Made by a program: the position numbers and the translations under genes
Shown: piece after piece, positions 5,882-24,000 of the stretch
Numbering within the stretch: the first letter of the stretch is position 1
Layout of the letters: every line of letters begins with the position of its first letter
DNA from: an uncultured Pseudomonadota bacterium
GTDB taxonomy: Bacteria; Pseudomonadota; Gammaproteobacteria; Burkholderiales; Rhodocyclaceae
Reading direction: 5' to 3'
Assembly (NCBI GenBank): GCA_903870055.1
Contig: CAIQBG010000016.1
Coordinates: 52,709-76,708 of the forward strand
Length of the DNA: 24,000 nt
The notes under the pieces: generated by a model
Databases searched by the model: none
What the model was told of the DNA's origin: nothing
What the model saw: only the letters and a program-made list of their open reading frames with translations

Positions 5882-6205
<324 letters not shown>

Positions 6206-6238: not shown

Positions 6239-6709
6239 GTGAACTTAAACGCAACATTATTCGCCCAGCTCATCGTATTCTTCATACTCGTATGGTTCAC
6301 GATGAAGTTTGTCTGGCCGCCGATTACGAAGGCGCTAGATGATCGTGCGAAAAAAATCGCTGATGGCCTGGCTGCAGCAGACCGTGGTAAGCATGAGCTA
6401 GAGCTTGCCAGCAAACGTTCGGCTGAAGTTGTGCGCGAAGGCAAAGAAAAGTCGGCTGATGTTCTGGCTAACGCTGAAAAGCGTGCAATCCAGATCATCG
6501 AAGAAGCCAAGGTCCAGGCCAAGGTTGAAGCTGATCGTATCGTGGCAAATGCTCGCGGTGAAGTTGAGCAAGAAGTTGTTCGCGCACGTGAACAACTTCG
6601 TGATCAAGTCGCTGCGCTGGCTGTAGCGGGTGCTGAAAAGATTCTCCGTAAGGAAATCAATGCAGGTGCCCATGCAGAAATTCTGGTTGCTATCAAGCAA
6701 GGTCTGTAA
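6239..6709 (+). CDS. atpF: F0 ATP synthase subunit b
   Basis: 156-aa ORF with a GTG start and RBS CAGGAGG. One N-terminal TM helix followed by a long charged Ala/Glu/Lys-rich helix, as in b subunits. Confidence 0.9.
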
Positions 6710-6712
6710 CCA

Positions 6713-7249
6713 ATGGCTGAATCCCTCACCGTAGCCCGTCCTTACGCCGAAGCGGTTTTCCGTCTCGGTCGCGAGTCAAGCGCGCTAGCCGACTGGAGTG
6801 GTTGGTTAGGTCGCCTGTCGCTGATTGCCAATGAATCGGCAATGCGGGACTGCTTTGGCAATCCGAAGCTGAATTCCCGTCAAGTCACTGACCTTGTGGT
6901 GGGCGTGCTCGGGGTGGAAGCCCCGCAGCCGCTGTCACGTTTTATTGAGGTGCTTGCCGAAAACAAGCGCCTGTCACTCCTTCCCGAAATCCAGACTCTT
7001 TTCGAAGAGCTGAAATCGGAAGAAGAAGGTGTGAAGGATGCGCTGATCATCAGTGCATTCCCGATGGACGATGCCCAGGTTGCTCAGGTACTGCCTGCAC
7101 TGGAACAGCATTTCTCTTCAAAGCTCAAGCCGCGCGTTACCGTGGACTCCTCGCTGATTGGCGGAGTCAAGGTTGAAGTCGGTGACGAGGTGTTTGACGC
7201 CTCGGTGCGTGGCCAGCTCGACGCTATGGCTGTCGCGTTAAAGAACTAG
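6713..7249 (+). CDS. atpH: F1 ATP synthase subunit delta (OSCP)
   Basis: 178-aa ORF. N-terminus ARPYAEAVF and C-terminus IGGVKVEVGDEVFDASVRGQL are typical for delta/OSCP. Lies between atpF and atpA. Confidence 0.9.
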   Translation: MAESLTVARPYAEAVFRLGRESSALADWSGWLGRLSLIANESAMRDCFGNPKLNSRQVTDLVVGVLGVEAPQPLSRFIEVLAENKRLSLLPEIQTLFEELKSEEEGVKDALIISAFPMDDAQVAQVLPALEQHFSSKLKPRVTVDSSLIGGVKVEVGDEVFDASVRGQLDAMAVALKN

Positions 7250-7260
7250 GAGTTTTCTAA

Positions 7261-8799
7261 ATGCAACTGAATCCTTCTGAGATCAGCGAGCTGATCAAGA
7301 GCAAGATTGAGAACCTTGGCCTGGGTGCTGAAACCCGGACCCAGGGTACTGTCGTATCGGTTACCGATGGCATTTGCCGCGTACACGGTCTGGAAGACGT
7401 GATGCAAGGTGAAATGCTTGAGTTCCCGAACGGCATCATGGGTATGGCACTTAACCTCGAGCGCGACTCTGTCGGTGCCGTGGTTCTTGGCGAATACGAA
7501 CAAATTTCGGAAGGCGACATCGTTAAATGTACGGGCCGCATTCTGGAAGTGCCTGTTGGTCCTGAACTGAAGGGTCGCGTTGTTAACGCCCTGGGTCAGC
7601 CAATCGACGGCAAGGGTCCGCTGGGTAACAAGCTGACCGACAAGATTGAAAAGGTTGCCCCGGGCGTGATCTGGCGTAAGTCAGTGTCGCAACCGCTGCA
7701 AACCGGTGTTAAGGCTGTTGACGCCATGGTGCCGATCGGCCGTGGTCAGCGTGAGCTGATCATTGGTGACCGTCAGACGGGTAAGACCGCTGTCGCCATC
7801 GATACCATCATTAACCAAAAGGGTCAGGGCGTAACCTGTATCTACGTTGCAGTCGGTCAGAAAGCTTCGACCATTGCTAACGTGGTACGCGCTCTGGAAG
7901 AGCACGGCGCTCTGGAATACACCATCATCGTTGCTGCTACCGCTTCGGATCCGGCTGCTATGCAGTTCATCGCTCCGTACTCGGGTTGCACGATGGGTGA
8001 ATACTTCCGTGACCGCGGTGAAGACGCCCTGATCGTATATGACGATTTGACCAAGCAAGCTTGGGCCTACCGTCAGATTTCTCTGCTGCTACGTCGTCCG
8101 CCAGGCCGCGAAGCTTACCCGGGTGATGTGTTCTATCTGCACTCGCGTCTGCTGGAGCGTGCTGCTCGCGTGAGCGAAGAGTATGTAGAAAAGCTGACCA
8201 ACGGCGAAATCAAGGGCAAGACCGGTTCGCTAACCGCGCTGCCAGTGATTGAAACCCAGGCAGGTGACGTTTCGGCCTTCGTTCCGACCAACGTTATTTC
8301 GATTACCGATGGCCAGATCTTCCTGGAAACCGACCTCTTTAACGCAGGTATCCGTCCGGCTATTAACGCCGGTATCTCGGTGTCTCGCGTGGGTGGTGCG
8401 GCTCAGACCAAGATCGTTAAGAAGCTGTCGGGTGGTATCCGTACCGATCTCGCCCAGTACCGTGAACTGGCTGCCTTTGCGCAGTTTGCTTCGGATCTGG
8501 ACGATGCAACCCGTAACCAGCTGGAGCGCGGTCGTCGCGTTGTGGAAGTGCTGAAGCAGCCACAATACGAGCCACTGAATGTTTCCAAGCAGGCTGTGGT
8601 TCTGTACGCGATTACCCGTGGCTACGCCGATGATGTGGAAGTGAACCGTGTACTCGAGTTCACCCGCAACCTGGTTAGCGACATCGAGCACAAGAACGCT
8701 GCACTGATGCAAAAGATGGAACAGACCAAAGATCTGGATGCTGATTCGGAGAAAGCACTCGTTGCTGCCATCGAAGCTTTCAAGTCCAGCTGGCTTTGA
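7261..8799 (+). CDS. atpA: F1 ATP synthase subunit alpha
   Basis: 512-aa ORF with Walker A GDRQTGKT. Alpha-subunit sequence is conserved throughout. Confidence 0.98.
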
Positions 8800-8813
8800 T
8801 CTAGGAGAGCGCC

Positions 8814-9677
8814 ATGGCAAGCGGCAAGGAAATCCGTACTAAGATCAAAAGCGTAGAAAATACGCGGAAGATCACCAAAGCTATGGAAATGGTTGCGGCG
8901 TCCAAAATGCGTAAAGCGCAAGACCGGATGCTCAAGGCCCGTCCTTATGGCGAGAAGATCCGCCGCGTTGCTGCGCACCTTTCGCATGCGTTGTCAGAGT
9001 ACAAGCATCCGTTCCTCGAGAAACGTGACCAGATTAAAAAGGTCGGCATCATTCTCGTGACTTCGGATAAAGGTCTCTGCGGCGGCTTGAACACTAACGT
9101 TCTGCGTCAACTCGTGAATAAAATGCGCGAGCTCGATGGCCAGAAGGTCGATGTTCAGGTCACAGCGATTGGTAGCAAAGGCTTCGCTTTCCTCCAGCGC
9201 AATGGTGCACAAGTTGTATCGCATGCTATTGGTCTGGGTGACAACCCGCACATTGACAGCCTGATTGGGCCAGTTAAGGTGCAGATTGATGCCTACAATG
9301 CCGGTGAAATCGATGAACTGCACATTGCCTACACGCGTTTCGTTAACACGATGCGCCAGGAGCCGGTTGTCGAACAACTGCTGCCGCTTGCGGGCGACAC
9401 AGTGGGTTCGGAATCGAGCCGCTGGGATTATGTTTACGAGCCGGATGCCAAGTCCGTGATCGATGATCTGCTGGTGCGTTACCTCGAGGCGCTGGTTTAC
9501 CAGTCCGTCGCCGAGAATATCGCATCGGAACAAAGTGCTCGGATGGTAGCCATGAAGGCTGCTTCCGATAACGCCAAGAACGTAATCGAAGAGCTGAAGC
9601 TGGTCTACAACAAGACCCGCCAAGCAGCGATTACGAAAGAGCTGTCCGAGATCGTCAGCGGCGCAGCAGCGGTTTGA
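8814..9677 (+). CDS. atpG: F1 ATP synthase subunit gamma
   Basis: 287-aa ORF with the conserved gamma termini ([30 protein letters not shown] ... [14 protein letters not shown]). Confidence 0.96.
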
Positions 9678-9685
9678 TTTTTTAG

Positions 9686-11104
<1,419 letters not shown>

Positions 11105-11158
11105 CCGGAAGTTCCATCCCCCCGCCGCGCGGTAACGTGCGGCGGATCAGGAGCAAAT

Positions 11159-11578
11159 ATGTCATTAAGAATCCATGTAGACGTAGTCAGCGCTGAAGAG
11201 ATGATTTTCTCGGGTGAAGCTGATCACGTAGTACTGCCGGGTGAATCGGGCGAGCTTGGTATCTGGCCACGCCACACCCCGCTGCTGACGCGTATCCGTC
11301 CGGGTGCCGTTCGCATCAAACTGCCAGATGGCGGCGAAGAGTTCGTCTACGTTTCCGGCGGCATGCTGGAAGTACAGCCGACGATGGTAACGGTTCTGGC
11401 TGATACTGCCATCCGTGCCCACGATCTAGATGAAGCCCGTGCTCAGCAGGCCAAGAAGGCTGCCGAAGAGCTGCTGCAAAAACGTGATAGCAGCATGGAC
11501 TACGCCAAGGCCGAAGGCGAACTGGCCGACGCAATTGGTCAGCTGGCTGCCATCAAGAAGCTGCGCAATAAGCACTAA
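11159..11578 (+). CDS. atpC: F1 ATP synthase subunit epsilon
   Basis: 139-aa ORF, last gene of the operon. N-terminal beta-sandwich-type sequence ([29 protein letters not shown]) and a C-terminal helical region. Confidence 0.93.
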
Positions 11579-11620
11579 CGCATTAGTCGCACTAAGTTTC
11601 AGGTAGCAATACCTAAAACG

Positions 11621-11650
11621 AAAAAGACCACCTTCGGGTGGTCTTTTTTT
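11621..11650. terminator. Bidirectional rho-independent terminator between atpC and ubiJ
   Basis: Perfect 8-bp stem AGACCACC (11625-11632), loop TTCG, GGTGGTCT (11637-11644). It is flanked by an A-run (11621-11624, continued by the stem A at 11625) and a T-run (11645-11650), so it can terminate both convergent transcripts. Confidence 0.85.
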
Positions 11651-11665
11651 ACGTCGCTGAAGCCC

Positions 11666-12247
11666 TTATCGGGTTAGGCGATCAACGCGCTGCTGCAGGC
11701 GTGCCACATCGTTGCGCAGGGTGTCGACGTTATCCATAAAGGCGTGTACCTCTGGGGTAGGCACAATCACCGATTGCCCTTCGGCCACGTGTTCGGTGAA
11801 CTGATCCTTCAATCGATTAACCAGATCTTCAGTGCCCTGCTTCAGGGAATAAAAGAAACCCATGGCACGGTGTGCCGCTATGTCACCAATCTTCGATGCC
11901 AGAAAGGCTTCCGGGTCCGGGCGAATCTGATCCATCACATCGTTTAATGCATTGGCCAGATCGATATTGCCGCGAATCTTTGCGGCTTTGATCACGCCTT
12001 GGCGACCATGGCTCAGGAAGAGTGAAGCGGCATTCGCCGGCAGATCTATGGAGAGTGTGGGGTCGTCATCACCAAAGACCTGATGCGCGGCCAGCAGACC
12101 ATCCGGCTCAATCGTGTAGCGCATCAATGAGCGCTCAGCCATAGAGATACGTAGCGACGATCCGTTAAAGGCAGCCAGACGTGATGCCGCCCACGGATCA
12201 TCGCGCAGGGCTCGATTAATAACGGGCAAGGTTAGGCTGTGCAGCAT
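11666..12247 (-). CDS. ubiJ: Ubiquinone biosynthesis accessory factor UbiJ (SCP2 domain)
   Basis: By hand alignment it resembles E. coli UbiJ (PDPEAFLASKIGDIAAHRA vs FDPAELLAPYTGDIAAEGI, with a C-terminal coiled helix). It lies immediately downstream of ubiE. The start is taken at ATG 12247 (MLHSLTLPVINRAL), because the longer ORF to 12322 would overlap ubiE by 68 nt. Confidence 0.8.
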   Translation of the reverse strand: MLHSLTLPVINRALRDDPWAASRLAAFNGSSLRISMAERSLMRYTIEPDGLLAAHQVFGDDDPTLSIDLPANAASLFLSHGRQGVIKAAKIRGNIDLANALNDVMDQIRPDPEAFLASKIGDIAAHRAMGFFYSLKQGTEDLVNRLKDQFTEHVAEGQSVIVPTPEVHAFMDNVDTLRNDVARLQQRVDRLTR

Positions 12248-12254
12248 AGCGCGC

Positions 12255-13010
12255 TTAGAACTTGTCGCCGATGTGCAGCGCGACAACGCCACCTGTGAGG
12301 TTGTGATATTGCACGCGGTCAAAGCCCACGCCTTCCATCATCTGCTTGAGCGTTTCCTGATCGGGGTGCATGCGGATGGACTCGGCGAGATAGCGGTAGC
12401 TATCAGCATCCTGAGCCACGATTTGTCCCACTTGCGGGATCACCTTAAAAGAATAGAAATCGTAGATGGGCGCGAGCAATGGTGTGACCTTGGAAAACTC
12501 CAGTACCATCAGCTTGCCGCCTGGCTTGAGCACGCGGCGCATCTCGGTGAGCGCACCGTCTTTATGTGTCATGTTGCGCAGGCCGAAAGCTACCGTAACG
12601 ATGTCAAAGTAGCCATCAGGGAATGGTAGTTTTTCAGCATCGCACTGCGCTGTCTTGATAACGGTACCGGCGTTGAGCAAACGATCACGACCGCAGGTGA
12701 GCATGGCGTTGTTAATGTCGGTTAACCAGACTTCACCGCTAGGGCCGACTTTCTTGCTGAAGGCCTTGGCCAGATCGCCTGTGCCGCCCGCAATGTCCAG
12801 CACCTTCATGCCGGGGCGCACGCTGCTACGGCCGATGGTGAAGATTTTCCATAAGCGGTGCAGACCCCCGGACATCAGGTCATTCATGATGTCGTATTTG
12901 GTTGCGACTGAATCAAAGACGTTGCGTACGCGACCCGCCTTTTCCCGTTCATTCACGGTTTCGTAGCCGAAGTGGGTGGTACCCGAATTGTTGTTGATAG
13001 GGTTCGTCAC
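12255..13010 (-). CDS. ubiE: Demethylmenaquinone/ubiquinone C-methyltransferase UbiE
   Basis: 251-aa ORF. UbiE/MenG N-terminus ([44 protein letters not shown]) and SAM motif [12 protein letters not shown]. Confidence 0.95.
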
Positions 13011-13479: not shown

Positions 13480-15588
13480 ATGGAAAAAACGGTCAAAAAT
13501 CTACCAGAAATCGGGATCCTATGGGCCTTGCGTTGCTTAGTGCGCCTGGATGGCTATAAGCAATTCCTTGCAGAAGATGGTTTTATGGACGATGCACTCG
13601 CCCGTACATTAGGTCTTGGAACCTATATTCCTGAAACTGAGGCAGAAGGGAATATGTTCAACCGACACAAAATGCTTTCGAAGCTGCGCTTCAAATTGAA
13701 ACAGATGGAAGCAGATACAGAACACATCCGCGTGCCGGAGGATTTGGCCGAAAATATTAGCCGCTTACAGTCAATGACGCGGATGTCGGATACTGAATGC
13801 CGTATTCTTGAGTTCGCGATTATGTCGCACGGTATGCGTGACATTGAGCGTATTACTGAACTACCCCCTTGTATTCGTCCGGCCGAAGTCGCTAAACATA
13901 TTGCGATTTATCTGGGCACGCCCGTTAACGACGTGCTCAAAGCGGTTAATCGTCAGTCACTGATGGTCCGCTCAGGTTTGTTCTGCATCTCGGGGAATGA
14001 AACTTTTATGCCCTCACTTTGCGAGCATATGAAGCTGGTGTCATATACGTTTGCCGAACAAATGCTCTCGGCCAATTGTGATTTTGAGCAGATTTTTCAT
14101 GACATGGTTTCGCCAGGCAGAAAATCAACACTGACAATTAATGACTTCTCCCATCTTAAGGATCAAGTAGAGATTCTTTGCCAATACTTATCCCATGCTG
14201 TGAAAGAAAAGAAGCAAGGTGCCAACGTTTTAATCTGGGGAAAGCCTGGTGTTGGCAAGACTGCGTTGGCACAGGTGGTTGCCGATGTTGTTGGTTTGCC
14301 GCTCTATGAAATTTCCAGCGAGGGGCAGGACGGTATGCCTTTGACGGGTGATGAGCGCTTCCGCGCCTACACGGCTGCGCAGTCTTTCTTGTGCCAGAAA
14401 GATAGCCTCTTTGTATTTGATGAGGTGGAGGATGTTTTTAGTGGAAACCGCGTTTTGACCAACCTGTTGGGTGGGCGTGATCGTAATGTGAACGCCGGGC
14501 TGAATAAAGCCTGGATCAACAATACGCTGGAGAGCAATTCGGTCCCGACGATTTGGATCAGCAACTCTGTCCACGGAACCATTGATCCGGCGCACGCCCG
14601 CCGCTTCTCTCTGATAATCGAAATGCCGATTGCGCCACAAGCGCAGCGCCGTCGAATGATCATGGATATGGGTCAGGGTTTGCTCAATGAGGAAACCGTT
14701 AACTTGCTTAGCCAATCTGAGCAACTTGCACCGGCAGTTGTTAGTCGTGCGATTGATGTCATTAAAACGATAGAGCCAGATATGGCGCAAAAGAAAGCAT
14801 CGGCATGGGCTAAGTTGATGGTTAATGCCACCTTGGAAGCTCAGTCACACCAATCGTTGCCTGCAAACGCCTCGAAGAAATTGATGGACTATGATCCGAT
14901 ATTTGTGAATGCCAATTACGATCTTGCCGAGGTGGCCAAAGGCCTGGCACGCGCCAACCAGGGTCGTTTATTGCTCATGGGGCCGCCTGGCTGCGGCAAG
15001 AGCGGTTATGCCGCTTGGTTAGCCCATCATTTAGGTAAACCATTGCATGCAAAAAAAGGCTCAGATTTTCTGGGGGCTTATGTAGGAGAGTCCGAAAAGA
15101 ATATTGCCAAGGCATTCAAAGAGGCAATGGAGGCAGACGCGATTTTACTAATTGACGAGGTGGACTCGTTCCTGGCCAAGCGTAGCAATGCCACACATAA
15201 CTGGGAAGTCTCTTTAGTGAATCAGGTGCTCGTCGAGATGTCGGAGTTTAATGGCTACCTGGTTGCAACGACAAACATCAATGCGGACCAGTTGGATCCT
15301 GCAGCGTTGCGTCGCTTTGATTTGAAAGCCAACTTTGAATACCTGCGCCAGGAGCAGGTGATTGCCATGGCTCAAAAACACTGCGCCACCTTGGGTCTTA
15401 GTGCGTTAGAGACAAACCATCAACAAGCATTGACTCAGCTTCACAAGCTGACGCCCGGTGACTTTGCTGTGATTGAGAGTCAGGCGAAATTCATTGAAAT
15501 TACTTCGACGGATAAGTTAATTGAAGCGCTAACCCGTGAGCATAGCGTCAAAGCCGCGACTAATATGGCTATGGGGTTTATTCATTAG
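13480..15588 (+). CDS. Tandem (D1-D2) classical-clade AAA+ ATPase with an uncharacterised ~240-aa N-terminal domain
   Basis: 702-aa ORF with RBS GAGAGG. D1 has Walker A GKPGVGKT (aa 254-261, nt 14239-14262) and Walker B LFVFDEVED. D2 has Walker A GPPGCGKS (aa 501-508, nt 14980-15003), Walker B ILLIDEVDS, GESEKNIAKAF and PAALRRFD. No TM segment and no protease domain. Confidence 0.85.
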   Translation: MEKTVKNLPEIGILWALRCLVRLDGYKQFLAEDGFMDDALARTLGLGTYIPETEAEGNMFNRHKMLSKLRFKLKQMEADTEHIRVPEDLAENISRLQSMTRMSDTECRILEFAIMSHGMRDIERITELPPCIRPAEVAKHIAIYLGTPVNDVLKAVNRQSLMVRSGLFCISGNETFMPSLCEHMKLVSYTFAEQMLSANCDFEQIFHDMVSPGRKSTLTINDFSHLKDQVEILCQYLSHAVKEKKQGANVLIWGKPGVGKTALAQVVADVVGLPLYEISSEGQDGMPLTGDERFRAYTAAQSFLCQKDSLFVFDEVEDVFSGNRVLTNLLGGRDRNVNAGLNKAWINNTLESNSVPTIWISNSVHGTIDPAHARRFSLIIEMPIAPQAQRRRMIMDMGQGLLNEETVNLLSQSEQLAPAVVSRAIDVIKTIEPDMAQKKASAWAKLMVNATLEAQSHQSLPANASKKLMDYDPIFVNANYDLAEVAKGLARANQGRLLLMGPPGCGKSGYAAWLAHHLGKPLHAKKGSDFLGAYVGESEKNIAKAFKEAMEADAILLIDEVDSFLAKRSNATHNWEVSLVNQVLVEMSEFNGYLVATTNINADQLDPAALRRFDLKANFEYLRQEQVIAMAQKHCATLGLSALETNHQQALTQLHKLTPGDFAVIESQAKFIEITSTDKLIEALTREHSVKAATNMAMGFIH

Positions 15589-16208
15589 CGGTGGCTTTGG
15601 AGCAAGCATAGCGATTTAGCAATTTTCCAGGCAAGGATTGCATCAGTAGGGTCGCCGAGTGTGTCCAGCACGAAGTTGTGTCGTCCATCGCTGCCCACGA
15701 TCCACAAACATTCACCTCCGGCAGCATGAAAGCCTGTTTGGGAGTCGGACGTGCTACAAGAGATCTTTGCTTTGTGGCCAAACCATCCGATACCACTGAT
15801 TGCTTGTGCAGGCCCATTACCAAACCTGCCAATGTTGGGACGAACCACCCCCTTGTCTTTAACAAAGATGCTTTCTTTGTGGTTGGCAGCATTAAAATCG
15901 CCTCGGGCGACTTTAATATGCACGACGTAATTGCTAGGTTCGAGCATTCGTTTGCCGTTAAATAAAAGATCCGTGTTGTTTTGACTGAGCAACCTCTTCG
16001 TGTGTTGTGCCGAAGGTTTAGTCAGGACATAAATGTCCTGACCTTCAGTTTTGATTAGAAATTTAGGCGGATAGCAAAACGAGACCCCAAGTTGTAGATT
16101 GCTGAAGCGTTGCCAGTTTTTTCCGTAAAAACTGCAGTCAGTTGCATTTGCAGTTATGGGTAGTAGCCCCACTAAAACTATTGCTAATGTCTTAAGCCGC
16201 AGATTCAT
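15585..16208 (-). CDS. Secreted protein of unknown function (Sec signal peptide, six Cys in the mature part)
   Basis: 207-aa ORF. Signal peptide MNLRLKTLAIVLVGLLPITANA/TD. Its ATG lies 17 nt inside the 3' end of the upstream FtsH-like gene, and its stop overlaps the stop of the convergent AAA+ gene. Confidence 0.6.
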   Translation of the reverse strand: MNLRLKTLAIVLVGLLPITANATDCSFYGKNWQRFSNLQLGVSFCYPPKFLIKTEGQDIYVLTKPSAQHTKRLLSQNNTDLLFNGKRMLEPSNYVVHIKVARGDFNAANHKESIFVKDKGVVRPNIGRFGNGPAQAISGIGWFGHKAKISCSTSDSQTGFHAAGGECLWIVGSDGRHNFVLDTLGDPTDAILAWKIAKSLCLLQSHR

Positions 16209-17571
16209 TTAGGACACCATATTCAATCGCCATGGATTTGAGATGGCCTTTGTCCAGAATCTTTTGCTTAACAAGACGATCAGCGATTGCCTCAAGAAAA
16301 ACACGGTGAGCCCGAAGTTGGTCAAGAACCACATCGTACTGTCGTGAAAGAAACAAACGGGCAGCATTCTCAATACGATGTTTTTCAGTATCAGAAACAT
16401 CGGTGCCTATTTTCAGTAAAAGATTAGATCCAGCGGTAGATTCATCTTCCATTGTTGGGCTAATGCCATAACGACCAATCAGATCTTTGGCGATGTCTGT
16501 GGCATGACGGAGATCACTGCGAGCGCTAGTGACAGACATATCTTCAATCCCAACAGTTAGTTGCTCGGCAGCACGACCTGCGAGCAGCACCCTCACAAGG
16601 TGGCGTTTGTATTTGTAAATGCCAATGGAAGGTATTGATGCCAGAAATTCATAAGATGCTGAAACCTGCCCCAAAGTGCCTATGGATGGAACAATCCCGG
16701 CGTAATCCGGAATGTTCATGCCGGATGAGTCAACTATGCTGACGAGTGCGTGCCCAGCCTCATGCAGTGCAATACTGTGTCTGAACTCTTTAGACGTGTT
16801 ATTAGGTACGTATTCACCCGTACCGTGTAGTGCAAAGTTAATCAGATCGCCGAACTCCACCTTGCGTTTTTCACGGTAAGCCAGCCGCTTTAGTGCGATG
16901 ATAATCAGGCCTACACGGCGCTCATCGGCAGCTTCGCAATCTAGAACCTGTCCGATTGGCTTAGGATCTGACAGCAAAGAGCTGCCACAAATATCAAGGG
17001 GCAACATCTCGACAAAAGCGAGCCCACGGTCGTGTAGCGATATGTCATCTACAAAGAAACGACGATCAAACGCCCCAGGGCTGCGCAGATCTTCTACTAA
17101 GTCGCACGGATCGTCACCGTAAGTAACAAATACCAGGTGTTTATCCGCAGGAATTTGAGCCATGAGTTCGGCAAATTTTTTATGGAAGGCCTGGATCTCA
17201 TCGGCATTCGAATGATCTTTGGTATCGGCAGACCAGATACCCAATGGCATCATGACTAGCGTGGGATCGAGAATCTCCGTGAATCCATTGGCAAAGAATT
17301 CAAAAATTTTATCTGCTGCCAATTCCCTTACTTGATAGCCGGATGCTTGTGCAATTTGATGAATGATTTTTTTGCTGTACTCCTTGTTGTCGTTCACAAT
17401 CATCGCAGCACGCCCAACAATTTCCCAGTCAATGGTTTGAGGTACACAGTTACTCGCCATATTGGCGAGTTCAATTGCCCAGGCTTTAATGGGGCGAAAC
17501 CGATCCGGGTTGCTCCACCCGGTTACCATGGGTTCGCTGGCAACCCGCATGTTTTGAAATGTTGATTTCAT
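16192..17571 (-). CDS. Soluble FtsH-like protein: degenerate (Walker A/B-less) AAA module fused to an intact M41 zinc-peptidase domain
   Basis: 459-aa ORF with strong RBS GGAGAAGG. M41 motif ALHEAGHAL (nt 16750-16764), third-ligand Glu in GRAAEQL, and AAA remnant LRSPGAFDRRFFV (compare [12 protein letters not shown] of FtsH). MIVNDNKEYSKK and LVMMPLGI occupy the Walker A and Walker B positions. No TM helices. Confidence 0.85.
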   Translation of the reverse strand: MKSTFQNMRVASEPMVTGWSNPDRFRPIKAWAIELANMASNCVPQTIDWEIVGRAAMIVNDNKEYSKKIIHQIAQASGYQVRELAADKIFEFFANGFTEILDPTLVMMPLGIWSADTKDHSNADEIQAFHKKFAELMAQIPADKHLVFVTYGDDPCDLVEDLRSPGAFDRRFFVDDISLHDRGLAFVEMLPLDICGSSLLSDPKPIGQVLDCEAADERRVGLIIIALKRLAYREKRKVEFGDLINFALHGTGEYVPNNTSKEFRHSIALHEAGHALVSIVDSSGMNIPDYAGIVPSIGTLGQVSASYEFLASIPSIGIYKYKRHLVRVLLAGRAAEQLTVGIEDMSVTSARSDLRHATDIAKDLIGRYGISPTMEDESTAGSNLLLKIGTDVSDTEKHRIENAARLFLSRQYDVVLDQLRAHRVFLEAIADRLVKQKILDKGHLKSMAIEYGVLNESAA

Positions 17572-17644: not shown

Positions 17645-17980
17645 CTAGTGAAAACTGCCTTGAAAGCAGTGGCGCAGCTCGTGCCCTAAAACATGCATCG
17701 TTGTCTGACGTGCCGTAATGATGGTGCAGCTGTTTTTGTCCCAAAAGGAGCAGGCATCGACGGCGTAGCCAAAGCCTCCGAGTTTTCGTTGGCGACTTTC
17801 GGCTTCGCACGCCTTCTGTACGTTATCGGTGAAGCGCCAGGCAATCTGCTTGGAATCTGCGTGGCGTTCCGTAGCGCTAAACTTTGTTTCTGGATTGCGC
17901 CAAGTCGGCTCGCTTCCCCATGACGGTATTCCTGTAAAAACGAGACCTGCGATTAGGGGCCAATTAAGAAGCGTTTTCAT
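17645..17980 (-). CDS. Small secreted four-Cys protein with C-terminal HExxHxxxGxxH (putative minimal zincin), paralogue 1
   Basis: 111-aa ORF. Signal peptide MKTLLNWPLIAGLVFTGIPSWG/S. The C-terminus GHELRHCFQGSFH (nt 17648-17683) ends the protein. About 28 of 59 aligned C-terminal positions are identical to the 125-aa ORF at 20002..20379 (hand alignment). Confidence 0.6.
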   Translation of the reverse strand: MKTLLNWPLIAGLVFTGIPSWGSEPTWRNPETKFSATERHADSKQIAWRFTDNVQKACEAESRQRKLGGFGYAVDACSFWDKNSCTIITARQTTMHVLGHELRHCFQGSFH

Positions 17981-18049: not shown

Positions 18050-19108
18050 TCAGTTAAATTTCAAGCGGAACTTCAGGTCATATCCTTCCGTGACCCAGTT
18101 GCTAGCAAAGTTTAGGTTTCCTTGGACATTAATTGCTTTTTCAGCAACGAGATCGAATTTCGATTTAGGACGATTCTGATCATCAACCCAGGGGGTTTTG
18201 GTATCTACATGCTGGTTTAGTGTGACAACGCCATCGCGAACCGGAAATCCAGCTACCGTTGTCCCGTCTCGGTTCATGATCGCAACGATTGCTGCTGCAT
18301 TAATCTGTTCATAGACTTCATCGGCCGCCCACCCTTGGTAACAATTAACTTCGCCTTTCCCGGCAAAGCAAAGGCTGAATGAATCGCCAGGGTTAGGTGG
18401 CGCCGTTGTATTGCTTTTGTTTTCGATAAAGGGCGCCACGATAATCGCTACTGGTATAAGCACTGGTAAAGCCGCTAATACAAGGAAACCCTTTCCAAGC
18501 TCGGCCCAGTTGTTTTTTTCGTGGTAGCTGTGCTTTGTGCCGTGCACCGTCAGAAAAGATTCAATGTCTGTCAGCCATTTGGGGCTGGGTATAATTTTTG
18601 TGAATTGGACTGCCATTCCAACGCTGCCATCCGCATTTACTATGGGATCGATGGTCCGTGATTCAACCTGGATCATTTCAGGTCGACGAACAAGTTTACG
18701 AAGCAGCTCTCGCGTACTGATTTGCTTGTTGAGATGGCGCTCGACTACGCCTAGGTCAATATTTTTCTCGGTGTTGACGACGATGCTTTTGGCATCAGGA
18801 GAAACCTTGGCTTCTATAGAAACTGTACAAGGCGATCCTCCCGAGTTTGATAACACTTTGTAGCTTTGCACAATGCCACCACTGTATTCATCAATAGACT
18901 CAGCGTATTCGTTGGCATTATTCAGGCTGCGCCGGCTGCTCAAAAAGCTGCCCTTGTAGTCTTCAGTCGCCTTAACTTTGGCCTGTTGTAATGCTTCTGT
19001 GCAATTGCGTCCGTAACCATCTGCTCGGAATCCCTGAGCGTCCGGTTTAACTGAAGCGCAGGCAGAAAGCACTAGCACTAACAGCCACGGTCCGATCTTT
19101 TTGATCAT
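18050..19108 (-). CDS. Lipoprotein with an internal transmembrane helix, function unknown
   Basis: The start is taken at ATG 19108 (RBS GAGGAG 7 nt upstream) rather than the ORF-track 19186. Signal/lipobox MIKKIGPWLLVLVLSAC, and a hydrophobic 22-mer GFLVLAALPVLIPVAIIVAPFI about 205 residues into the mature protein. Confidence 0.75.
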   Translation of the reverse strand: MIKKIGPWLLVLVLSACASVKPDAQGFRADGYGRNCTEALQQAKVKATEDYKGSFLSSRRSLNNANEYAESIDEYSGGIVQSYKVLSNSGGSPCTVSIEAKVSPDAKSIVVNTEKNIDLGVVERHLNKQISTRELLRKLVRRPEMIQVESRTIDPIVNADGSVGMAVQFTKIIPSPKWLTDIESFLTVHGTKHSYHEKNNWAELGKGFLVLAALPVLIPVAIIVAPFIENKSNTTAPPNPGDSFSLCFAGKGEVNCYQGWAADEVYEQINAAAIVAIMNRDGTTVAGFPVRDGVVTLNQHVDTKTPWVDDQNRPKSKFDLVAEKAINVQGNLNFASNWVTEGYDLKFRLKFN

Positions 19109-19254
19109 GATGGGTCTCCTCGATGAGAGAACAATTAGATCAAGGGGTCGAGACAATATATGTCTTAAGCAACCTCTATCCTGCATAGCACTTCCGGATT
19201 ACACCGGAGGAGCCATCAGCCATATTCATATCTCTTAAACTAAGGAATCTCTTC

Positions 19255-20001
19255 GTGAACACAGCAGAATTCTTAGGCGCACTACGTGAGCCGCTCCCAA
19301 ATTGGCTAAAAACTTATAGGCTAGGGAATAGGATCACGTTAGATGATTTTTTTGATTCGCGTACGGTGTATTACCCAGGGTCAGGCCATGACGGGCAGCC
19401 AGTTGCTTTATTTGGATCCTCAGGCGCAGCTCATTGTTTTGTATTCGCCGACTATGGCGTTAGCCAAGCTGAGATTACGGTTGATCTACAGAGTCGCTCC
19501 AATTCATTTCGAGGTTACAAGTCCTTAGTTCGTATTCACCTGAGCCAAGACGATTTAACACCAAACGGTTGGGCGGCACATATTCAACAACATGAAATCA
19601 CGAATAAATGCTTTATCCAGGGCTTTGTGACGCCGTTCGGATTTTTGGAAATCCTCGAACGTTTCAAAAATCTGGATGATACCCATGGGCCTAAAAGGCT
19701 CGCGGTTCTATTTCTTGGCGCCGATGGCATCGCAGCATATGACGCTATTTTTTGCCAAGGTACCCACAAGCCACCATTTGCTGTTGTCATTCAAGAGCAC
19801 GGGTTTGGGGGTAACTACGATGCCTTCGGCAGGGGAAGTCTTTTAGAACTGGTTGCTATGCGTGCTGGCAGTTTGCCAGCACTACAACTGGTTTCTCAAA
19901 ATGGTCAATGCTGGGAGGGCTACGAAGCAGTTCCAGATCTTCTTCCAACGTATGGGGGTGAGCACTCTGTGGAACGCAGGCTCTGCCGGCGTCTCATGTA
20001 A
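19255..20001 (+). CDS. Hypothetical cytoplasmic protein (possible Rossmann-like fold)
   Basis: 248-aa ORF with a GTG start and RBS TAAGGAA 8 nt upstream. No signal peptide. Glycine-rich YYPGSGHDG followed by FVFADYG and LFLGADG weakly resembles beta-strand/loop motifs of nucleotide- or SAM-binding folds. Confidence 0.55.
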   Translation: MNTAEFLGALREPLPNWLKTYRLGNRITLDDFFDSRTVYYPGSGHDGQPVALFGSSGAAHCFVFADYGVSQAEITVDLQSRSNSFRGYKSLVRIHLSQDDLTPNGWAAHIQQHEITNKCFIQGFVTPFGFLEILERFKNLDDTHGPKRLAVLFLGADGIAAYDAIFCQGTHKPPFAVVIQEHGFGGNYDAFGRGSLLELVAMRAGSLPALQLVSQNGQCWEGYEAVPDLLPTYGGEHSVERRLCRRLM

Positions 20002-20379
20002 TTATTTATGATAATTGCCCTGCATACAGTGCCTGATTTCGTGTCCGATCGTATGGTAATTGGCAACTGTAGCTAGTACAACTGTACATTTATTGTTGAT
20101 AGATGCACTATCCCAGAATGAGCATGCTTCGACTGAGGCCTTAAAGCCTCCAAATCCACGCTTCTTGCTCTCTACATCACAAACGGCACGAACATCTTTG
20201 ACGATAACGAATGTCACTTGAATCTTATCGGAATTAAGTTTCGTTAGATTAAACTCTTCATGCGGATTTTCACTTGATGTAAATATTTCTCCATTCTTAC
20301 CGGAGCCAGCAACAGAGAGTTGTGCTATCAATAAGAGCGATAGGCATATTGCTAGCTTGGGATTTACCAGTAAAGCCAT
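20002..20379 (-). CDS. Small secreted four-Cys protein with C-terminal HExxHxxxGxxH (putative minimal zincin), paralogue 2
   Basis: 125-aa ORF. Signal peptide MALLVNPKLAICLSLLLIAQLSVA/GSG. The C-terminus GHEIRHCMQGNYHK carries the motif (nt 20008-20043). Its ATG is 3 nt after the stop of the upstream nuclease gene, with AAGGA embedded in that gene's last codons. Confidence 0.65.
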   Translation of the reverse strand: MALLVNPKLAICLSLLLIAQLSVAGSGKNGEIFTSSENPHEEFNLTKLNSDKIQVTFVIVKDVRAVCDVESKKRGFGGFKASVEACSFWDSASINNKCTVVLATVANYHTIGHEIRHCMQGNYHK

Positions 20380-20382: not shown

Positions 20383-21843
20383 TTAGTCCTTTGCCCAGGC
20401 GTTCCATGTCTGATAAATCATAACCATCGCTAAAGTATCCAGCTCGCAGTACCTGAGCAAAGCCTTCCTGGTTGATTCTCTTAGTAGATCCGTCACATCT
20501 TCGAATTGCATACGTGCATAAGCAGTCGTGGCAGCACCTCCTTCGCGAATATCGTCACCCGCAACCGCATCCTCTCCAACGAGTTCCGATTGTTCAATGT
20601 CAGCAAAAATAGGGGGCAACAGATCATACGGATTCTTTGCACCATCTCCATCGGCAACCCACCAAGTCATCCCTTGTGCACCATCAATTGGGAAATTTTT
20701 GCTGGAAATACCGTTCGGTGCACCATAAACCGGTTGGCTATAAACACTTCTTAGCCATTCAGAAGATTTCATGACCGCCGGGAGAATCACTTTGATGCTG
20801 GTGCGTCCCTTGGTATCTGGATGGAAAAAGCACTGTCCAGCCAACACATTTAGATCGACCATCGTGCGAACGCCACGAACCACTGTTTCTTTACCGACTT
20901 TTCTGGTCGTTAATGATTCCGCAAACTTGATTAATTCATCCGCATCCGAAGGGGCTTTGCCAATTGCCTTAAGCTCCAGAAGGTCAGCGCGCAGACCGTT
21001 GAGCATGGTGTTTTCATAGTGACTCCACATGAACACGGTGCCTTTTTCCTGCCCGGGAGTACAAAGTGCCTTTTTGAGGGCCCGCAGGAAATCGATGGAT
21101 GGGTCAATACCAGGTGATAGATCTAGGAATTCGTTGGCATGTGTCACAGTGCCATTCGCGTCCAGCACATGGTGCGAAAACTGGAATGCAACCTGCGAAT
21201 AGGGCCGTTTGCCAGATACGAATGGCAATGCTGGTCGCGAGCCTTCAAAGTCGATGAAATGTAACGGGAAGGTGAATTCCGCTGCGGCTTGATGCCATAC
21301 AGCCTTGTCAAACTCGAATGGTTTTGCCTGACCCCACTCACCAAAAACTTGTAAATATTGGCGATAAGCCCGACTCATGCCTTGTCCCGCCTTGGTCTCT
21401 TCGAAATCTTCTTCTTCCAAAGTAGATAACCACAGGCCGCGGGATTTAATTAACTTATCGATCTGGCCTTTGACTGGGTAATACAATTCTGTGATCGGTC
21501 GATTTTTCTGGATATCCGCATATGAGACATGCGTGGCCTCAGCCCAGCATTCATGAAATCCACTTTTATGCTGAGCGTCGGGGTTGGCCGAATAAAACTC
21601 ACAAGTTCGGCAATGCTTACCGACAACGGCTTTGATTCGCTTTTTCTCAGCATAGGCATTAGCCCAATCCACGGCTGCCGCTTTAAAAAAACCCTCACCT
21701 CCCGGAAAGTGGATTGTTCCCGAAATAATTTGATCTACGAAACTGCTCACATCGACCGATTTAAGAAGTGGATTCCCAACCGAAGAAAGATTAGTTCCTG
21801 GCACGGTTACAGCCCAGCTTCGCTGATTGTCGCCATTGTTCAT
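20383..21843 (-). CDS. DUF2779-type protein, C-terminal part: Cys cluster plus DEDD/RNase H-like exonuclease-type domain
   Basis: 486-aa ORF. Contains HCRTCEF...HECW (three Cys). HFIDFEGSRPALPFVSGKRPYSQVAFQFSHH, GRTSIKVILPAV and LLRYCELDTLAMV match my memory of DUF2779 hallmarks and of ExoI (DxE) and ExoIII (Yx3D) motifs. It overlaps the upstream ORF by 53 nt in another frame. Confidence 0.7.
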   Translation of the reverse strand: MNNGDNQRSWAVTVPGTNLSSVGNPLLKSVDVSSFVDQIISGTIHFPGGEGFFKAAAVDWANAYAEKKRIKAVVGKHCRTCEFYSANPDAQHKSGFHECWAEATHVSYADIQKNRPITELYYPVKGQIDKLIKSRGLWLSTLEEEDFEETKAGQGMSRAYRQYLQVFGEWGQAKPFEFDKAVWHQAAAEFTFPLHFIDFEGSRPALPFVSGKRPYSQVAFQFSHHVLDANGTVTHANEFLDLSPGIDPSIDFLRALKKALCTPGQEKGTVFMWSHYENTMLNGLRADLLELKAIGKAPSDADELIKFAESLTTRKVGKETVVRGVRTMVDLNVLAGQCFFHPDTKGRTSIKVILPAVMKSSEWLRSVYSQPVYGAPNGISSKNFPIDGAQGMTWWVADGDGAKNPYDLLPPIFADIEQSELVGEDAVAGDDIREGGAATTAYARMQFEDVTDLLRESTRKALLRYCELDTLAMVMIYQTWNAWAKD

Positions 21844-22222
21844 CTGCTGTACCGCTCAAAGAATCGTAAGACTTTGACTTGACTTCGATCAATTCAATTT
21901 TCTTACCACGCTTTCGGATCACATCAATTCTGGCAACCCAGTGGCCATATTGAACCGTGCCCTCGAAAATTGTGACATCGGTCTGCTGAAGTAGTTGTTT
22001 GGTGCGTGCAATCTGATCTACCTGATCGCGATCGGTTACCTCGATACCTTCTGGATAGAGAAGCTTGGCCAGTTCACCGACCTGAAAGCCCCCATCGGCG
22101 AGTGCTTTTAGAAAGTCATTGCTTTTCTTGGTGTCTACGTAGTCTGGTTTGCCCACATAATCCAGCTTTGTTGGGCACTCGAGGGCTGTCTTAAAACGAC
22201 TTTTGCTCAGGTAGCGGCTCAT
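21791..22222 (-). CDS. PD-(D/E)XK (Cas4/RecB-like) nuclease core, N-terminal part of a split DUF2779-family gene
   Basis: The start is taken at ATG 22222 (MSRYLSKSRFKTALECPTKL, the typical DUF2779-protein N-terminus; purine-rich AAGAGA upstream). Nuclease core ARIDVIRKRGKKIELIEVKSKS. The ORF stops 27 codons after the EVK motif. This may be a frameshifted pseudogene fragment. Confidence 0.6.
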   Translation of the reverse strand: MSRYLSKSRFKTALECPTKLDYVGKPDYVDTKKSNDFLKALADGGFQVGELAKLLYPEGIEVTDRDQVDQIARTKQLLQQTDVTIFEGTVQYGHWVARIDVIRKRGKKIELIEVKSKSYDSLSGTADEQWRQSAKLGCNRARN

Positions 22223-22235
22223 TATTTCTCTTGCC

Positions 22236-22892
22236 TCACCAAAGCACAATTCGGTCATCTGGGCTAAGCAAATCACGCCCTGCAGTACCGTTTAGTAGAT
22301 TAATGTGTGAAGCGTTTTTGCCTGGCCAAAGTTTGGCAACAATTGCATCAAGGATGCCAGCCTGATTGCCAATGATTGCCGATTCAAAGCGCTCAAGATT
22401 AGCCTTGGGCTGAATCACGGTGCTGTTAAATTTGGAGACGGCAACACGCGCATCTTTAAGTAGATCACCCGGGCCGCCAAGTGCAGTGAATCGTTCAGTT
22501 GCAAAGTCGCGCCAGTTTTCAGGATGGTGTACGCCCCCAATAGTGTCGGCGTTCGAACCGACATGGCTCCCCGTTGCTTTTACACGGTGTTTCTTCAAGC
22601 GATTCAATACGCCTTCACTTGCTTTCGAATCATTTGACGCAATGCCTACATATAGGGTCGGTTTCGGAATGTCTACTGCGAAAAGATAGATCCCATACCA
22701 GGCTTCAAGTGCTTGAGCATCGGGTGTTACGGGCTCGAGAGACTTGCTCCATGTCGTGTAGGTGGCGCGATCGCGCACGGGTGTCCAGCCTTGCGCGGTC
22801 TTTTGATGAGACAAAGGACCCCAAGGCGCCAGATCAGCTGGAACCGTAAAGTGCGTTGACACATCAAGGGGGAGATTGAAATGTAGTTCCAT
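22236..22892 (-). CDS. GIY-YIG superfamily nuclease-like protein
   Basis: 218-aa ORF with RBS AAGGAA. GIY (aa 67-69), 11 residues, then YVG (aa 81-83), followed by NRLKKH (compare KRWKRH of I-TevI), and later a candidate catalytic Glu/Asn in LERFESAIIGN. Confidence 0.55.
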   Translation of the reverse strand: MELHFNLPLDVSTHFTVPADLAPWGPLSHQKTAQGWTPVRDRATYTTWSKSLEPVTPDAQALEAWYGIYLFAVDIPKPTLYVGIASNDSKASEGVLNRLKKHRVKATGSHVGSNADTIGGVHHPENWRDFATERFTALGGPGDLLKDARVAVSKFNSTVIQPKANLERFESAIIGNQAGILDAIVAKLWPGKNASHINLLNGTAGRDLLSPDDRIVLW

Positions 22893-22917
22893 CGCTATTC
22901 CTTAGAATCGGAGAGGT

Positions 22918-24000
22918 TTACTTGCTGTACATGCTGGCCGCTTTTTTCAAGTCTTCGGCGACGCGATTTTTGAGTACTTTGGGGCCAATAACGCGGACAT
23001 GATTGGCCATGCTGAGGATCCAGTAGACCAATTCTTCGCGGAGGGTTGTGGTCAGGCTCAGTTCGTAGCCATCCTTAACCTTTTTGGCAGTTTGGCTTTC
23101 ATCCAGGGGTGTTTCAGATATCCAGCCATAAGTGCCTTCGTCTACCCAGAGCTTAAGGTTAATAGGGTTGCCTAGGATGTCCTCATCAAATACCGGGTAC
23201 GCCAGTCCCTTCTTAAGGAAGGCGTCTAGATCAAAATCCTCGCCGCCTTTGACCGCAGCATAGTCAACAGAGTGCACGTCTTTGACTTTCTTGATGCGCG
23301 GGATTGTAAAAAAAACAGGAGCGGTCCCGTGCCCACGTTTGATACCAATCAGATAGCGGCGCACGCCGCGCTGGACGAGACCCAATGGTTTAACGACAAA
23401 CTCTTGGTCGCGGTACTGAATTTCAATCAACTTTTCCTGATACAAGGCCTCGTGAACCTGCTTCTCGACTTCAGGAGAGCTCTCGGGTGCTACAAAGCCG
23501 ACAGTTTCCGAAAGAATGGCGACCTTACTGAGCCACTTCTCTTCGGCCGCCAACGCCGCTTTGTTTGGGATTTTTTTGCCTAAATTTTTGTCTGCTTGGC
23601 TCTTCAGCAGTTCATTCTTATGAATGGCAGTAAATAGGGGGGCGAGCTCATCTACGAGAGCCCTAGGGACAAGACCAAGGCCAACTTTCTGCAGCACACC
23701 AAGTGCAACTGATTGGGCTGAGGTCAGCGCATTAACCATTAAGCCTGAACCGCCCTCTTTCCAGCTATAGGCGTTTTCACGATAGGCATGGCCTTTGTCA
23801 TCTTCGGCAAGCACCTTCTTGGATTCGATAGCGCCAGTAATCTGCTTAAGATGACGGAGATCGCGGGCAATCATTTGACGAAATCCAACGTCTTGGGCAT
23901 TTTTCTTTTTATCGGCAACACGGCAGGCGATCATTTTGACCGTCATCGGTTTGTCACTGCCTTGTAGGGTAGAGAAAACCGCCCAGATACGTTTGTTCAT
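22918..24000 (-). CDS. WYL-domain transcriptional regulator (BrxR/CapW/PafBC-like: wHTH - WYL - WCX)
   Basis: 360-aa ORF whose ATG is the last triplet of the window, so it could extend further upstream. N-terminal HTH (MTVKMIACRV...RQMIARDLRHLK). WYL-type segment LIEIQYRDQEFVVKPLGLVQRGVRRYLIGIKRGHGTAPVFFTIPRIKKV. C-terminal WCX-like ELVYWILSMANHVRVIGPKVLKNRVAEDLKKA. Confidence 0.8.
   Translation of the reverse strand: MNKRIWAVFSTLQGSDKPMTVKMIACRVADKKKNAQDVGFRQMIARDLRHLKQITGAIESKKVLAEDDKGHAYRENAYSWKEGGSGLMVNALTSAQSVALGVLQKVGLGLVPRALVDELAPLFTAIHKNELLKSQADKNLGKKIPNKAALAAEEKWLSKVAILSETVGFVAPESSPEVEKQVHEALYQEKLIEIQYRDQEFVVKPLGLVQRGVRRYLIGIKRGHGTAPVFFTIPRIKKVKDVHSVDYAAVKGGEDFDLDAFLKKGLAYPVFDEDILGNPINLKLWVDEGTYGWISETPLDESQTAKKVKDGYELSLTTTLREELVYWILSMANHVRVIGPKVLKNRVAEDLKKAASMYSK

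Follow-up and report, generated by a model that had tools for sequence, protein, structure and literature searches.

The window analyzed here, 24,000 nucleotides (nt) of the Rhodocyclaceae contig CAIQBG010000016.1 (GCA_903870055.1, positions 52,709 to 76,708), ends with a compact cassette of co-directional genes at 20383-24000. In the order in which they would be transcribed, these are the gene of a transcription factor with a predicted winged helix-turn-helix (wHTH) followed by WYL and WCX parts, the gene of a stand-alone nuclease from a rare branch of the GIY-YIG enzymes (hereafter, the GIY-like protein), and a DUF2779 gene broken into two open reading frames (ORFs), ORF3 and ORF4 (Table 1). 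The preliminary description of this DNA had counted four genes with three separate nuclease proteins. Its ORF coordinates, gaps, ribosome-binding site, overlap, and quoted motifs were all reproduced; ORF3 and ORF4, however, are the two pieces of a single gene, and we therefore count three genes, i.e., two nuclease genes, one of them broken. We propose, tentatively and with slightly less than even confidence, that the cassette represents a WYL-controlled nuclease module for anti-phage defence that has been degraded in this genome.

The gap between the WYL and GIY-like genes is 25 nt long and holds the AAGGAA ribosome-binding site, that between the GIY-like gene and ORF3 is 13 nt long, and ORF3 and ORF4 overlap by 53 nt. 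The motifs GIY-11 aa-YVG (aa, amino acids), NRLKKH, IDV...ELIEVK, FIDFEG, and YCELD are seen in the translations. Simple scans found no promoter-like or terminator-like sites between the cassette genes, and these clean intergenic junctions are compatible with co-transcription without proving it. The last base of the window is the first of the WYL start codon, and the promoter and operator of this gene therefore lie off-window. An exact look-up of the WYL protein gave no match and that of the GIY-like protein gave short contigs only; the upstream region was read instead from two relatives, L024 and L015, among the 27 loci that we collected (about 17 of them distinct and carrying a GIY-like gene). 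In both relatives, a gene of 88 to 90 aa and of unknown function (L024:776-1042 and L015:8599-8871) ends 26 nt before the WYL start codon, and thus the operon probably begins beyond the window edge. Perfect inverted repeats of 16 nt (L024:589-625) and 15 nt (L015:8439-8474) lie ~150 nt upstream of the 88-aa gene and are candidate operators only. Compared with L024, the ratio of nonsynonymous to synonymous substitution rates (dN/dS) is 0.13 for the WYL gene, 0.45 for the GIY-like gene (only 22 changes), and 0.07 and 0.13 for the two DUF2779 parts. Judged by these ratios, the cassette ORFs are real genes rather than chance ORFs.

The third gene is by Pfam a bona fide member of the DUF2779 family (PF11074, 1e-20 on ORF4), with its D...ExK, four-cysteine, and DEDDy motifs, although the window copy is truncated and frameshifted, unlike the intact family members. 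More than 7,196 DUF2779 homologues were retrieved, nearly all of the best 120 being 650 to 700 aa long, whereas the window has an ORF of 143 aa and another of 486 aa in place of a single polypeptide of that size. An intact 684-aa orthologue follows the WYL and GIY-like genes in the L004/L015 island, and L024, which shares 96% nucleotide identity with the window, also carries the intact gene (684 aa). The 90%-identity cluster of the 486-aa ORF likewise holds three 684-aa proteins together with the 143/155-aa fragments of the window. Alignment with L024 revealed that 215 bp are absent from the window at 21838/21839, a gap also seen in the alignment with L004. In L024, the 9-bp direct repeat CAATGGCGA stands at either end of this segment, and a single copy is left in the window. 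As 215 = 71 x 3 + 2, the loss shifts the reading frame, resulting in the premature stop of ORF3 and in the apparent 53-nt overlap. Among the lost residues is the conserved sequence LPYLQDVAFQxYV (QxxxY type), which is kept in 27/27 database homologues of the N-terminal part and in the intact L004 protein. The four invariant DUF2779 cysteines are split between the two ORFs, one (C16) in ORF3 and three (C276, C279, and C297) in ORF4.

A programmed frameshift or a genuine two-gene split was rejected as the origin of this arrangement, since the 215-bp deletion takes out a conserved motif and the gene is intact in near-identical relatives. Judged from the contigs, an assembly artefact is unlikely: a 9-bp repeat is too short for assembly collapse, and the split is found again on another contig of 2,376 bp (listed for three samples), in which the 143-aa ORF precedes one of 366 aa that runs off the contig end. 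Moreover, the low dN/dS in both DUF2779 halves makes the inactivation recent relative to the 4% divergence. Judged from sequence, the DUF2779 gene of this genome is thus a pseudogene inactivated by a frameshifting deletion, and only the WYL regulator and the GIY-like protein would still be able to work as designed.

Across 44 homologues, the DEDDy residues of DUF2779 are invariant, i.e., D396/E398 (FIDFEG), D528, and Y663/D667 (YCELD). The PD-(D/E)XK residues D100/E113/K115 are invariant in intact DUF2779, and the family also has Y152 and Q159; in the window, the D...ExK and the cysteines of the Cas4-like domain remain, the Y152-Q159 block is gone, and the domain lies in two frames. The model of the intact protein (predicted local distance difference test [pLDDT] of 89.8) was matched by Foldseek to Cas4 (probability 0.97), RNase T (0.90), MGME1, and ACE1, the last being an Argonaute-associated Cas4 protein. 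Sequence-profile searches of the PDB with the DUF2779 N-domain profile (A2) and with the intact protein gave no meaningful match. As modeled, DUF2779 is a Cas4-like PD-(D/E)XK domain joined to a predicted DEDDy exonuclease, a domain reading in agreement with Majorek et al. (PMC3985635) and with a 2026 analysis (PMC13621843). Of the PD-(D/E)XK and DEDD nucleases announced earlier, the two domains were thus confirmed by motifs, the four cysteines, and fold matches, while their placement on separate proteins was not, both belonging to one gene. The DUF2779 family is functionally uncharacterised and was found to be quasi-essential in the minimal Mycoplasma JCVI-syn3 (PMC13621843). As the family has no established function, membership in it assigns no role to the gene.

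The GIY-like family is rare, with 27 proteins among 5.8e9 and 146 clusters among 1.84e9 representatives. Searches of 185,579 species genomes found it at 4 loci (two in Acetobacteraceae, one in Rhodanobacter, and one in Luteibacter) and searches of JGI metagenomes at 10 loci; no relatives were found in 2.9 million IMG/VR viral contigs, 50,697 INPHARED phage records, or 72,556 PLSDB plasmids. The window protein had no match in Pfam, NCBIfam, PADLOC, or PHROGs, nor did a scan of all 26 family members at E <= 10 give any, and the Pfam GIY-YIG model (PF01541) matched neither this protein nor 25 close homologues, even at E <= 10. Its motif layout is G67-I-Y69, 11 residues, and Y81-V-G83, with G67, Y69, Y81, and G83 invariant across 26 homologues, as are R98, K101-H102-R103, H123, and E170. 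The candidate catalytic set would consist of Y69, Y81, R98, K101/H102, and E170, in which R98 and E170 could be equivalent to R27 and E75 of I-TevI, as suggested by order and spacing. The AlphaFold model (pLDDT 95.9) has its core at about residues 60 to 175. The top Foldseek match in the PDB was the GIY-YIG restriction enzyme Hpy188I (E-value of 0.15), with Eco29kI, another such enzyme, also listed (E-value of 5) and template modeling (TM) scores of 0.24 to 0.28, and the top matches in BFVD were mostly GIY-YIG homing endonucleases, with a probability of up to 0.72. A sequence-profile search of the PDB with the family profile (A1) gave no meaningful match.

The link to GIY-YIG enzymes is made firmer by two remote members found by the family profile, P0184 and P0189, which bridge the family to the Pfam GIY-YIG model. 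They score 23.6 and 23.2 bits, respectively, versus a Pfam cut-off of 22.6, and align to the GIY-like family over the motif region with hhalign probabilities of 97% and 96%. On the basis of the motifs, of weak but consistent fold matches, and of these remote homologues, we accepted the GIY-like protein as a new, divergent GIY-YIG branch; the assignment first made by eye from the translation thus held, with invariant motifs, consistent fold matches, and remote homologues that pass the Pfam threshold. Three other members, P0059 (513 aa), P0076 (495 aa), and P0092 (358 aa), have extra N- or C-terminal regions of 140 to 290 aa without any Pfam match, and these fusions might reveal partner functions.

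Among known nucleases, CMoRE is also a small GIY-YIG anti-phage nuclease without methyltransferase, as is proposed for the GIY-like protein; it is a single-protein type IV enzyme whose defining features are a GIYxY-YIG motif and a modification sensor at the C terminus (PMC12923530). The GIY-like protein differs on these very points: with GIYLF in the window protein and GIY(I/L)x as family consensus, the third tyrosine of GIYxY is missing, and the GIY-YIG core has a conserved 60-aa segment in front of it and no sensor or other extra domain at the C terminus. Moreover, CMoRE is a single-component system, whereas the GIY-like gene is paired with a WYL gene and matches no PADLOC model. Hpy188I and Eco29kI are the closest solved folds and, at 170 to 214 aa versus 218 aa, are likewise stand-alone catalytic domains with no separate DNA-binding module. 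Here the similarity is weak, and the ORFs analyzed from 13.0 to 24.0 kb of the window encode no methyltransferase domain that could be a cognate partner, nor do most related loci; the only methyltransferases are ubiE and rsmG of the core genome. A type II restriction-modification (RM) system with p248, a conserved protein encoded at 19255-20001, as methyltransferase was considered and rejected, since p248 gives no methyltransferase or other signal and locus L013 has no such partner.

Pfam identified a WYL domain (4e-7, residues 180 to 240) and a WCX domain (3e-11, residues 279 to 355) in the 360-aa regulator, and two PADLOC WYL models matched it at 8e-25 and 5e-8. The N-terminal wHTH part has no Pfam helix-turn-helix match, though the second of these models (PDLC01457) covers residues 4 to 342, and T20 and R49 are invariant across diverse WYL homologues. 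Of the architecture noted from the sequence, the WYL-WCX part was thus upheld by the Pfam domains and by the PADLOC models. Taken alone, the regulator matched solved structures weakly, DriD being the best at an E-value of ~0.2. A profile built from the window regulator and nine WYL proteins from related loci (A5) matched PafBC at 1.4e-20 and DriD at about 1e-19, versus 6.7e-6 and 0.05 for BrxR (7qfz and 7t8k, respectively) and 0.03 for CapW. Thus, by profile similarity, the nearest characterised relatives are single-stranded DNA (ssDNA)-sensing activators of DNA damage regulons and not defence repressors, and the specific likeness to BrxR and CapW drawn from the architecture in the preliminary description did not hold, as A5 scores PafBC and DriD far better. 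Because the profile sits nearer these two activators, calling the WYL regulator a repressor is an assumption.

BrxR and CapW nevertheless resemble the window regulator in their three-part architecture, of which WYL and WCX are confirmed here and the N-terminal part, covered by a PADLOC WYL model, is predicted, and in heading a closely spaced set of co-directional genes within a defence-type island (PMC9122601, PMC9122589, PMC9122588, and PMC11662680). By analogy, nucleic acid (ssDNA) sensing would be expected here too. They differ in length (~290 to 300 aa versus 360 aa), and their BREX and CBASS effectors are unrelated to the genes found downstream in the window. PafBC, DriD, and SiwR are alike in giving the best profile matches and in that the adjacent genes encode DNA-processing enzymes, as in SiwR-type local regulation, but these regulators are chromosomal and control repair regulons, whereas the window regulator is island cargo among restriction-type genes. 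In CapW, DriD, PafBC, and SiwR, binding of ssDNA by the WYL domain switches transcription (PMC11662680, PMC10853764, PMC11804915, and PMC10693628).

The cassette lies in what looks like the cargo of an integrative island running from ~13.4 kb to the window end, with the other island end and any att site off-window. Core genes occupy positions 268 to 13010 (mnmG, rsmG, parA, parB, the atp operon, and ubiE at 12255-13010), and right after ubiE, near 13.0 to 13.5 kb, the GC content falls from ~55% to ~48%. In the homologous L004/L015 island, a tyrosine integrase and an AlpA-type gene precede the cassette at a distance of 2.1 kb; this island contains McrBC, and in L015 it is next to dnaJ. The remaining island genes of the window encode, among others, a double-AAA+ ATPase (AAA702), an FtsH-type M41 peptidase-domain protein, and p248 (Table 1). 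In PADLOC-DB v2.0.0, the GIY-like protein, the DUF2779 fragments, the intact DUF2779, p248, M41, and p207 were unmatched, and the WYL regulator was recognized by generic models; as had been supposed, the combination corresponds to no named system in this PADLOC run.

Table 1. Features of the window and, in the last row, of related loci
Feature	Position	Strand	Remarks
Transcription factor gene, predicted wHTH + WYL-WCX	22918-24000	-	360 aa
Ribosome-binding site AAGGAA	22898-22903	-	5 nt before the GIY-like ATG, read from sequence
GIY-like gene, stand-alone nuclease of rare GIY-YIG branch	22236-22892	-	218 aa
DUF2779 pseudogene (ORF3 + ORF4)	20383-22222	-	Predicted Cas4-like Fe-S PD-(D/E)XK domain + DEDDy 3'-5' exonuclease
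ORF3, N-terminal DUF2779 fragment	21791-22222	-	143 aa from ATG
ORF4, C-terminal DUF2779 fragment	20383-21843	-	486 aa
Deletion junction	21830-21839	-	Single leftover CAATGGCGA copy; frameshift and loss of QxxxY-type motif
Double-AAA+ ATPase (AAA702)	13480-15588	+	702 aa; Pfam AAA
ORF of unknown function (p207)	15585-16208	-	207 aa
M41 (FtsH-type) peptidase-domain protein	16192-17571	-	Pfam Peptidase_M41 1e-20; without AAA domain
p248, conserved protein	19255-20001	+	No Pfam or PDB match
Small secreted-type HExxH protein	17645-17980	-	111 aa; paralogous to the 125-aa protein
Small secreted-type HExxH protein	20002-20379	-	125 aa; paralogous to the 111-aa protein
Lipoprotein-like protein	18050-19186	-	378 aa
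Small-family members	L027:6637-6876; L025:6700-6864, 14910-15179; L018:3868-4083; L015:8180-8431; L013:8094-8651

Tight WYL-to-GIY-like operons, with gaps of 13 to 25 nt, occur in the island lineage of the window (the window itself, L024, and L015) and in L013, where the two genes lie beside the kdp operon, at a different insertion site, and without DUF2779. The strict order WYL, GIY-like, DUF2779 belongs to this lineage only. L018 has a co-directional WYL-AAA-DUF2779-247aa-GIY-like array, with 40% identity for the GIY-like protein, L008 has AAA-DUF2779-three ORFs-GIY-like, and in L007 a divergent WYL gene lies beside M41-96aa-NUDIX-GIY-like-p248-McrBC. Overall, DUF2779 and GIY-like genes stand in one co-directional cluster in three different arrangements. 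A WYL gene was present within 6 kb of the GIY-like gene in 6/12 loci with enough flank. Three distant DUF2779 genes chosen purely by the size of their contigs gave AAA | WYL-79aa-DUF2779-652aa-p248 in L027, a WYL gene 6.6 kb from DUF2779 in L025, and, in L026, a DUF2779 gene abutting an integrase in an island with a BilABCD-like ubiquitin-type operon and RES-Xre pairs.

The other island genes of the window recur as well. Homologues of p248 follow DUF2779 in L015, L024, and the independent locus L027 (there after DUF2779-652aa) and the GIY-like gene, at 3 nt, in L007. Homologues of AAA702 immediately precede DUF2779 in L008 and L018, lie close to WYL and DUF2779 in L027, and are also found close to GIY-like genes in L013 and L014. 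M41 has homologues in L015 and in L007, in the latter 0.8 kb ahead of the GIY-like gene, with two small genes in between. AAA702, p248, and M41 thus appear as recurrent companions, and the cassette is probably larger than 20383-24000. With its invariant motifs YPG..D..P, ADY, LTP..W, and Q.HG and no meaningful match of its profile (A6) in the PDB, p248 may be an unrecognised component, and AAA702 and M41 may together form a split ATPase/protease module with a link to the nucleases. The second AAA domain of AAA702 is IetA-like (6e-35 over part of the model); its identification as the IetA of an IetAS system was rejected, since only a generic AAA domain is involved and no IetS-type serine protease accompanies it. 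Among 140 neighbouring proteins, WYL was the most frequent family in raw counts. Other neighbours across the loci include LeoA/LeoBC (Eleos-like dynamins), IetA-like AAA proteins, HEC-06, McrBC, GmrSD, and type I/II restriction genes, and single loci are adjoined by type I RM with GmrSD, by TIR proteins, or by integrases. The proteins between AAA/DUF2779 and GIY-like genes in L008, L014, and L018 had no Pfam match and no detectable mutual similarity. Regarding the synteny expected for these genes, co-occurrence in defence-type islands was therefore borne out and a fixed order was not: the genes are shuffled, with extra partners, and the families also occur separately. The best explanation is a conserved core formed by the WYL and GIY-like pair, with DUF2779, AAA702, p248, and M41 as separable partners in shuffled order.

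From the gene anatomy, the domain identities, the deletion, and the recurrent linkage in defence-type islands, we infer a scheme for the co-transcription of the cassette, the ligand and direction of its regulation, the substrates of its nucleases, and its role in defence. The region 20383-24000 would form the promoter-distal portion of a cassette that is co-transcribed and borne on an integrative island. By analogy with its relatives, the WYL domain may sense nucleic acid, most likely ssDNA arising from phage replication or DNA damage, and the WYL factor would then activate the nuclease genes that follow it. The GIY-YIG enzyme could nick or cleave invading (or damaged) DNA, and an intact DUF2779 protein could resect the resulting ends, 5'-3' via its Cas4-like domain and 3'-5' via its DEDDy domain. 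As no methyltransferase accompanies these nucleases, silencing them at the level of transcription would help to limit self-damage. Altogether, the module is probably inducible, whether in response to phages or to DNA damage, and the island context is the reason for which we favour defence.

Several observations weigh against an anti-phage role for such a WYL-controlled module. The fold-search E-values of the GIY-like model are weak (0.05 to 5), and the WYL profile is nearer DNA damage activators than defence repressors. No WYL gene was found in L005, L008, L009, L010, L020, and the P0026 contig, i.e., in half of the informative loci, and in L007, L012, and L022 its orientation relative to the GIY-like gene is divergent or convergent, so that it may belong to another operon. 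DUF2779 is >50 times more abundant than the GIY-like family and mostly occurs without a GIY-like gene; it is dispensable, as shown by its loss here and its absence from L013, and its quasi-essentiality in a minimal Mycoplasma points to housekeeping DNA processing in at least some lineages (PMC13621843).

The affinity of the regulator leads to an alternative that we consider serious but unlikely, namely, a DNA damage response module in which a PafBC/DriD-type WYL activator detects ssDNA following genotoxic stress and induces repair or processing nucleases for the host or the island rather than for immunity, with UvrC/Cho-like incision by the GIY-YIG enzyme and AddB/Cas4-like and DnaQ-like end resection. 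Besides the A5 matches to PafBC (1.4e-20) and DriD (about 1e-19) and the single-sequence best match to DriD, WYL activators are known that control neighbouring genes during genotoxic stress (PMC10693628, PMC10853764, and PMC11804915), DUF2779 is quasi-essential in JCVI-syn3, where the best DEDD match is the repair nuclease MrfB (PMC13621843), and L007 has at its edge genes for an S24 peptidase and for an error-prone polymerase (IMS). Yet the profile likeness concerns the generic WYL-WCX region and leaves the sign of regulation unset, and the genes behave as island cargo, patchy and horizontally scattered (4 loci in 185,579 species genomes), sitting among McrBC, RM, GmrSD, Eleos-like, TIR, and Bil genes, whereas core repair genes are seldom so rare or mobile. 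The shuffled gene orders could also mean that independent modules, i.e., a GIY-YIG toxin or restriction-like enzyme under WYL control, a solo Cas4-like DUF2779 nuclease, and an AAA+/protease pair, merely travel together in the variable cargo of related islands, an account that we find equally improbable. In line with it, L013 lacks DUF2779, L025, L026, and L027 lack the GIY-like gene, L005, L009, L010, and L020 lack all partners, DUF2779 was lost here with its neighbours retained, and the gene order differs in every lineage. However, four to five rare families co-occur in independent loci at 31 to 45% identity and form tight co-directional arrays in L018, L008, and L027, a recurrence hard to attribute to chance for a family of ~146 clusters in 1.84e9 proteins.

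Finally, the nucleases could serve the life cycle of an integrase/AlpA-type island (e.g., in replication and packaging, or by processing helper phage DNA or interfering with it), with the WYL factor coupling their expression to helper infection. The proximity of the L004/L015 cassette to the tyrosine integrase and AlpA-type gene (2.1 kb), the DUF2779 gene abutting an integrase in L026, the GIY-like gene following a resolvase in L005, and a documented satellite-encoded domesticated endonuclease (PMC8096241) would fit this idea. It is very unlikely given the absence of relatives from IMG/VR, the 50,697 phage records, and the 72,556 plasmids, the lack of mobility genes near several loci (L013 beside kdp, and L010), and the fact that the parts of the island that were examined showed no genes for capsid, primase, or packaging proteins. 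Returning to anti-phage defence, a broader version of it, in which WYL, GIY-like, DUF2779, AAA702, and p248, with or without M41, are interchangeable parts of one unrecognised modular system with a PafBC/DriD-like WYL protein that senses ssDNA and induces nucleases to destroy invading DNA, is improbable in our view; if true, it would provide the first biological role for the DUF2779 family (>7,000 members). We file the cassette as a WYL-gated nuclease cassette of defence islands, outside any named system.

If the WYL and GIY-like pair protects against phage, it would bring a new effector family into the expanding set of WYL-gated defences, in the form of a compact stand-alone GIY-YIG nuclease, possibly useful as an enzyme, from a family recognised by no domain library used here. 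The shuffled yet recurrent linkage represents a testable context for the large, uncharacterised DUF2779 family (PMC13621843), and the PafBC/DriD affinity of the regulator bears on the wiring of DNA damage sensing with immunity. In practice, 20,000-24,200 of this genome carries the cassette with a dead third gene, and the intact version is found in the L024-type strain.

A small family of proteins (~50 to 90 aa; 185 aa in L013) was also found directly beside WYL and/or DUF2779 genes of independent loci, its members being related at phmmer E-values of 1e-16 to 7e-3 (Table 1). In the Bil/RES-Xre island of L026 (2426-4961 and 6409-6996), a 195-aa RNase T-family gene ends 4 nt before DUF2779. On the other side of the window, mnmG, rsmG, parA, parB, and atp (268-11578) form an origin-proximal housekeeping cluster, which suggests that the island was inserted near the chromosomal replication origin region. 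Between M41 and the pseudogene, the 111-, 125-, and 378-aa proteins had no Pfam match; the 111- and 125-aa paralogues have signal-peptide-like N termini and a C-terminal HE(I/L)RHCxQGxxH zinc-protease-like motif. This trio of the HExxH pair and the lipoprotein-like protein also occurs in L015, while L024 lacks the 125-aa gene (a 349-bp difference).

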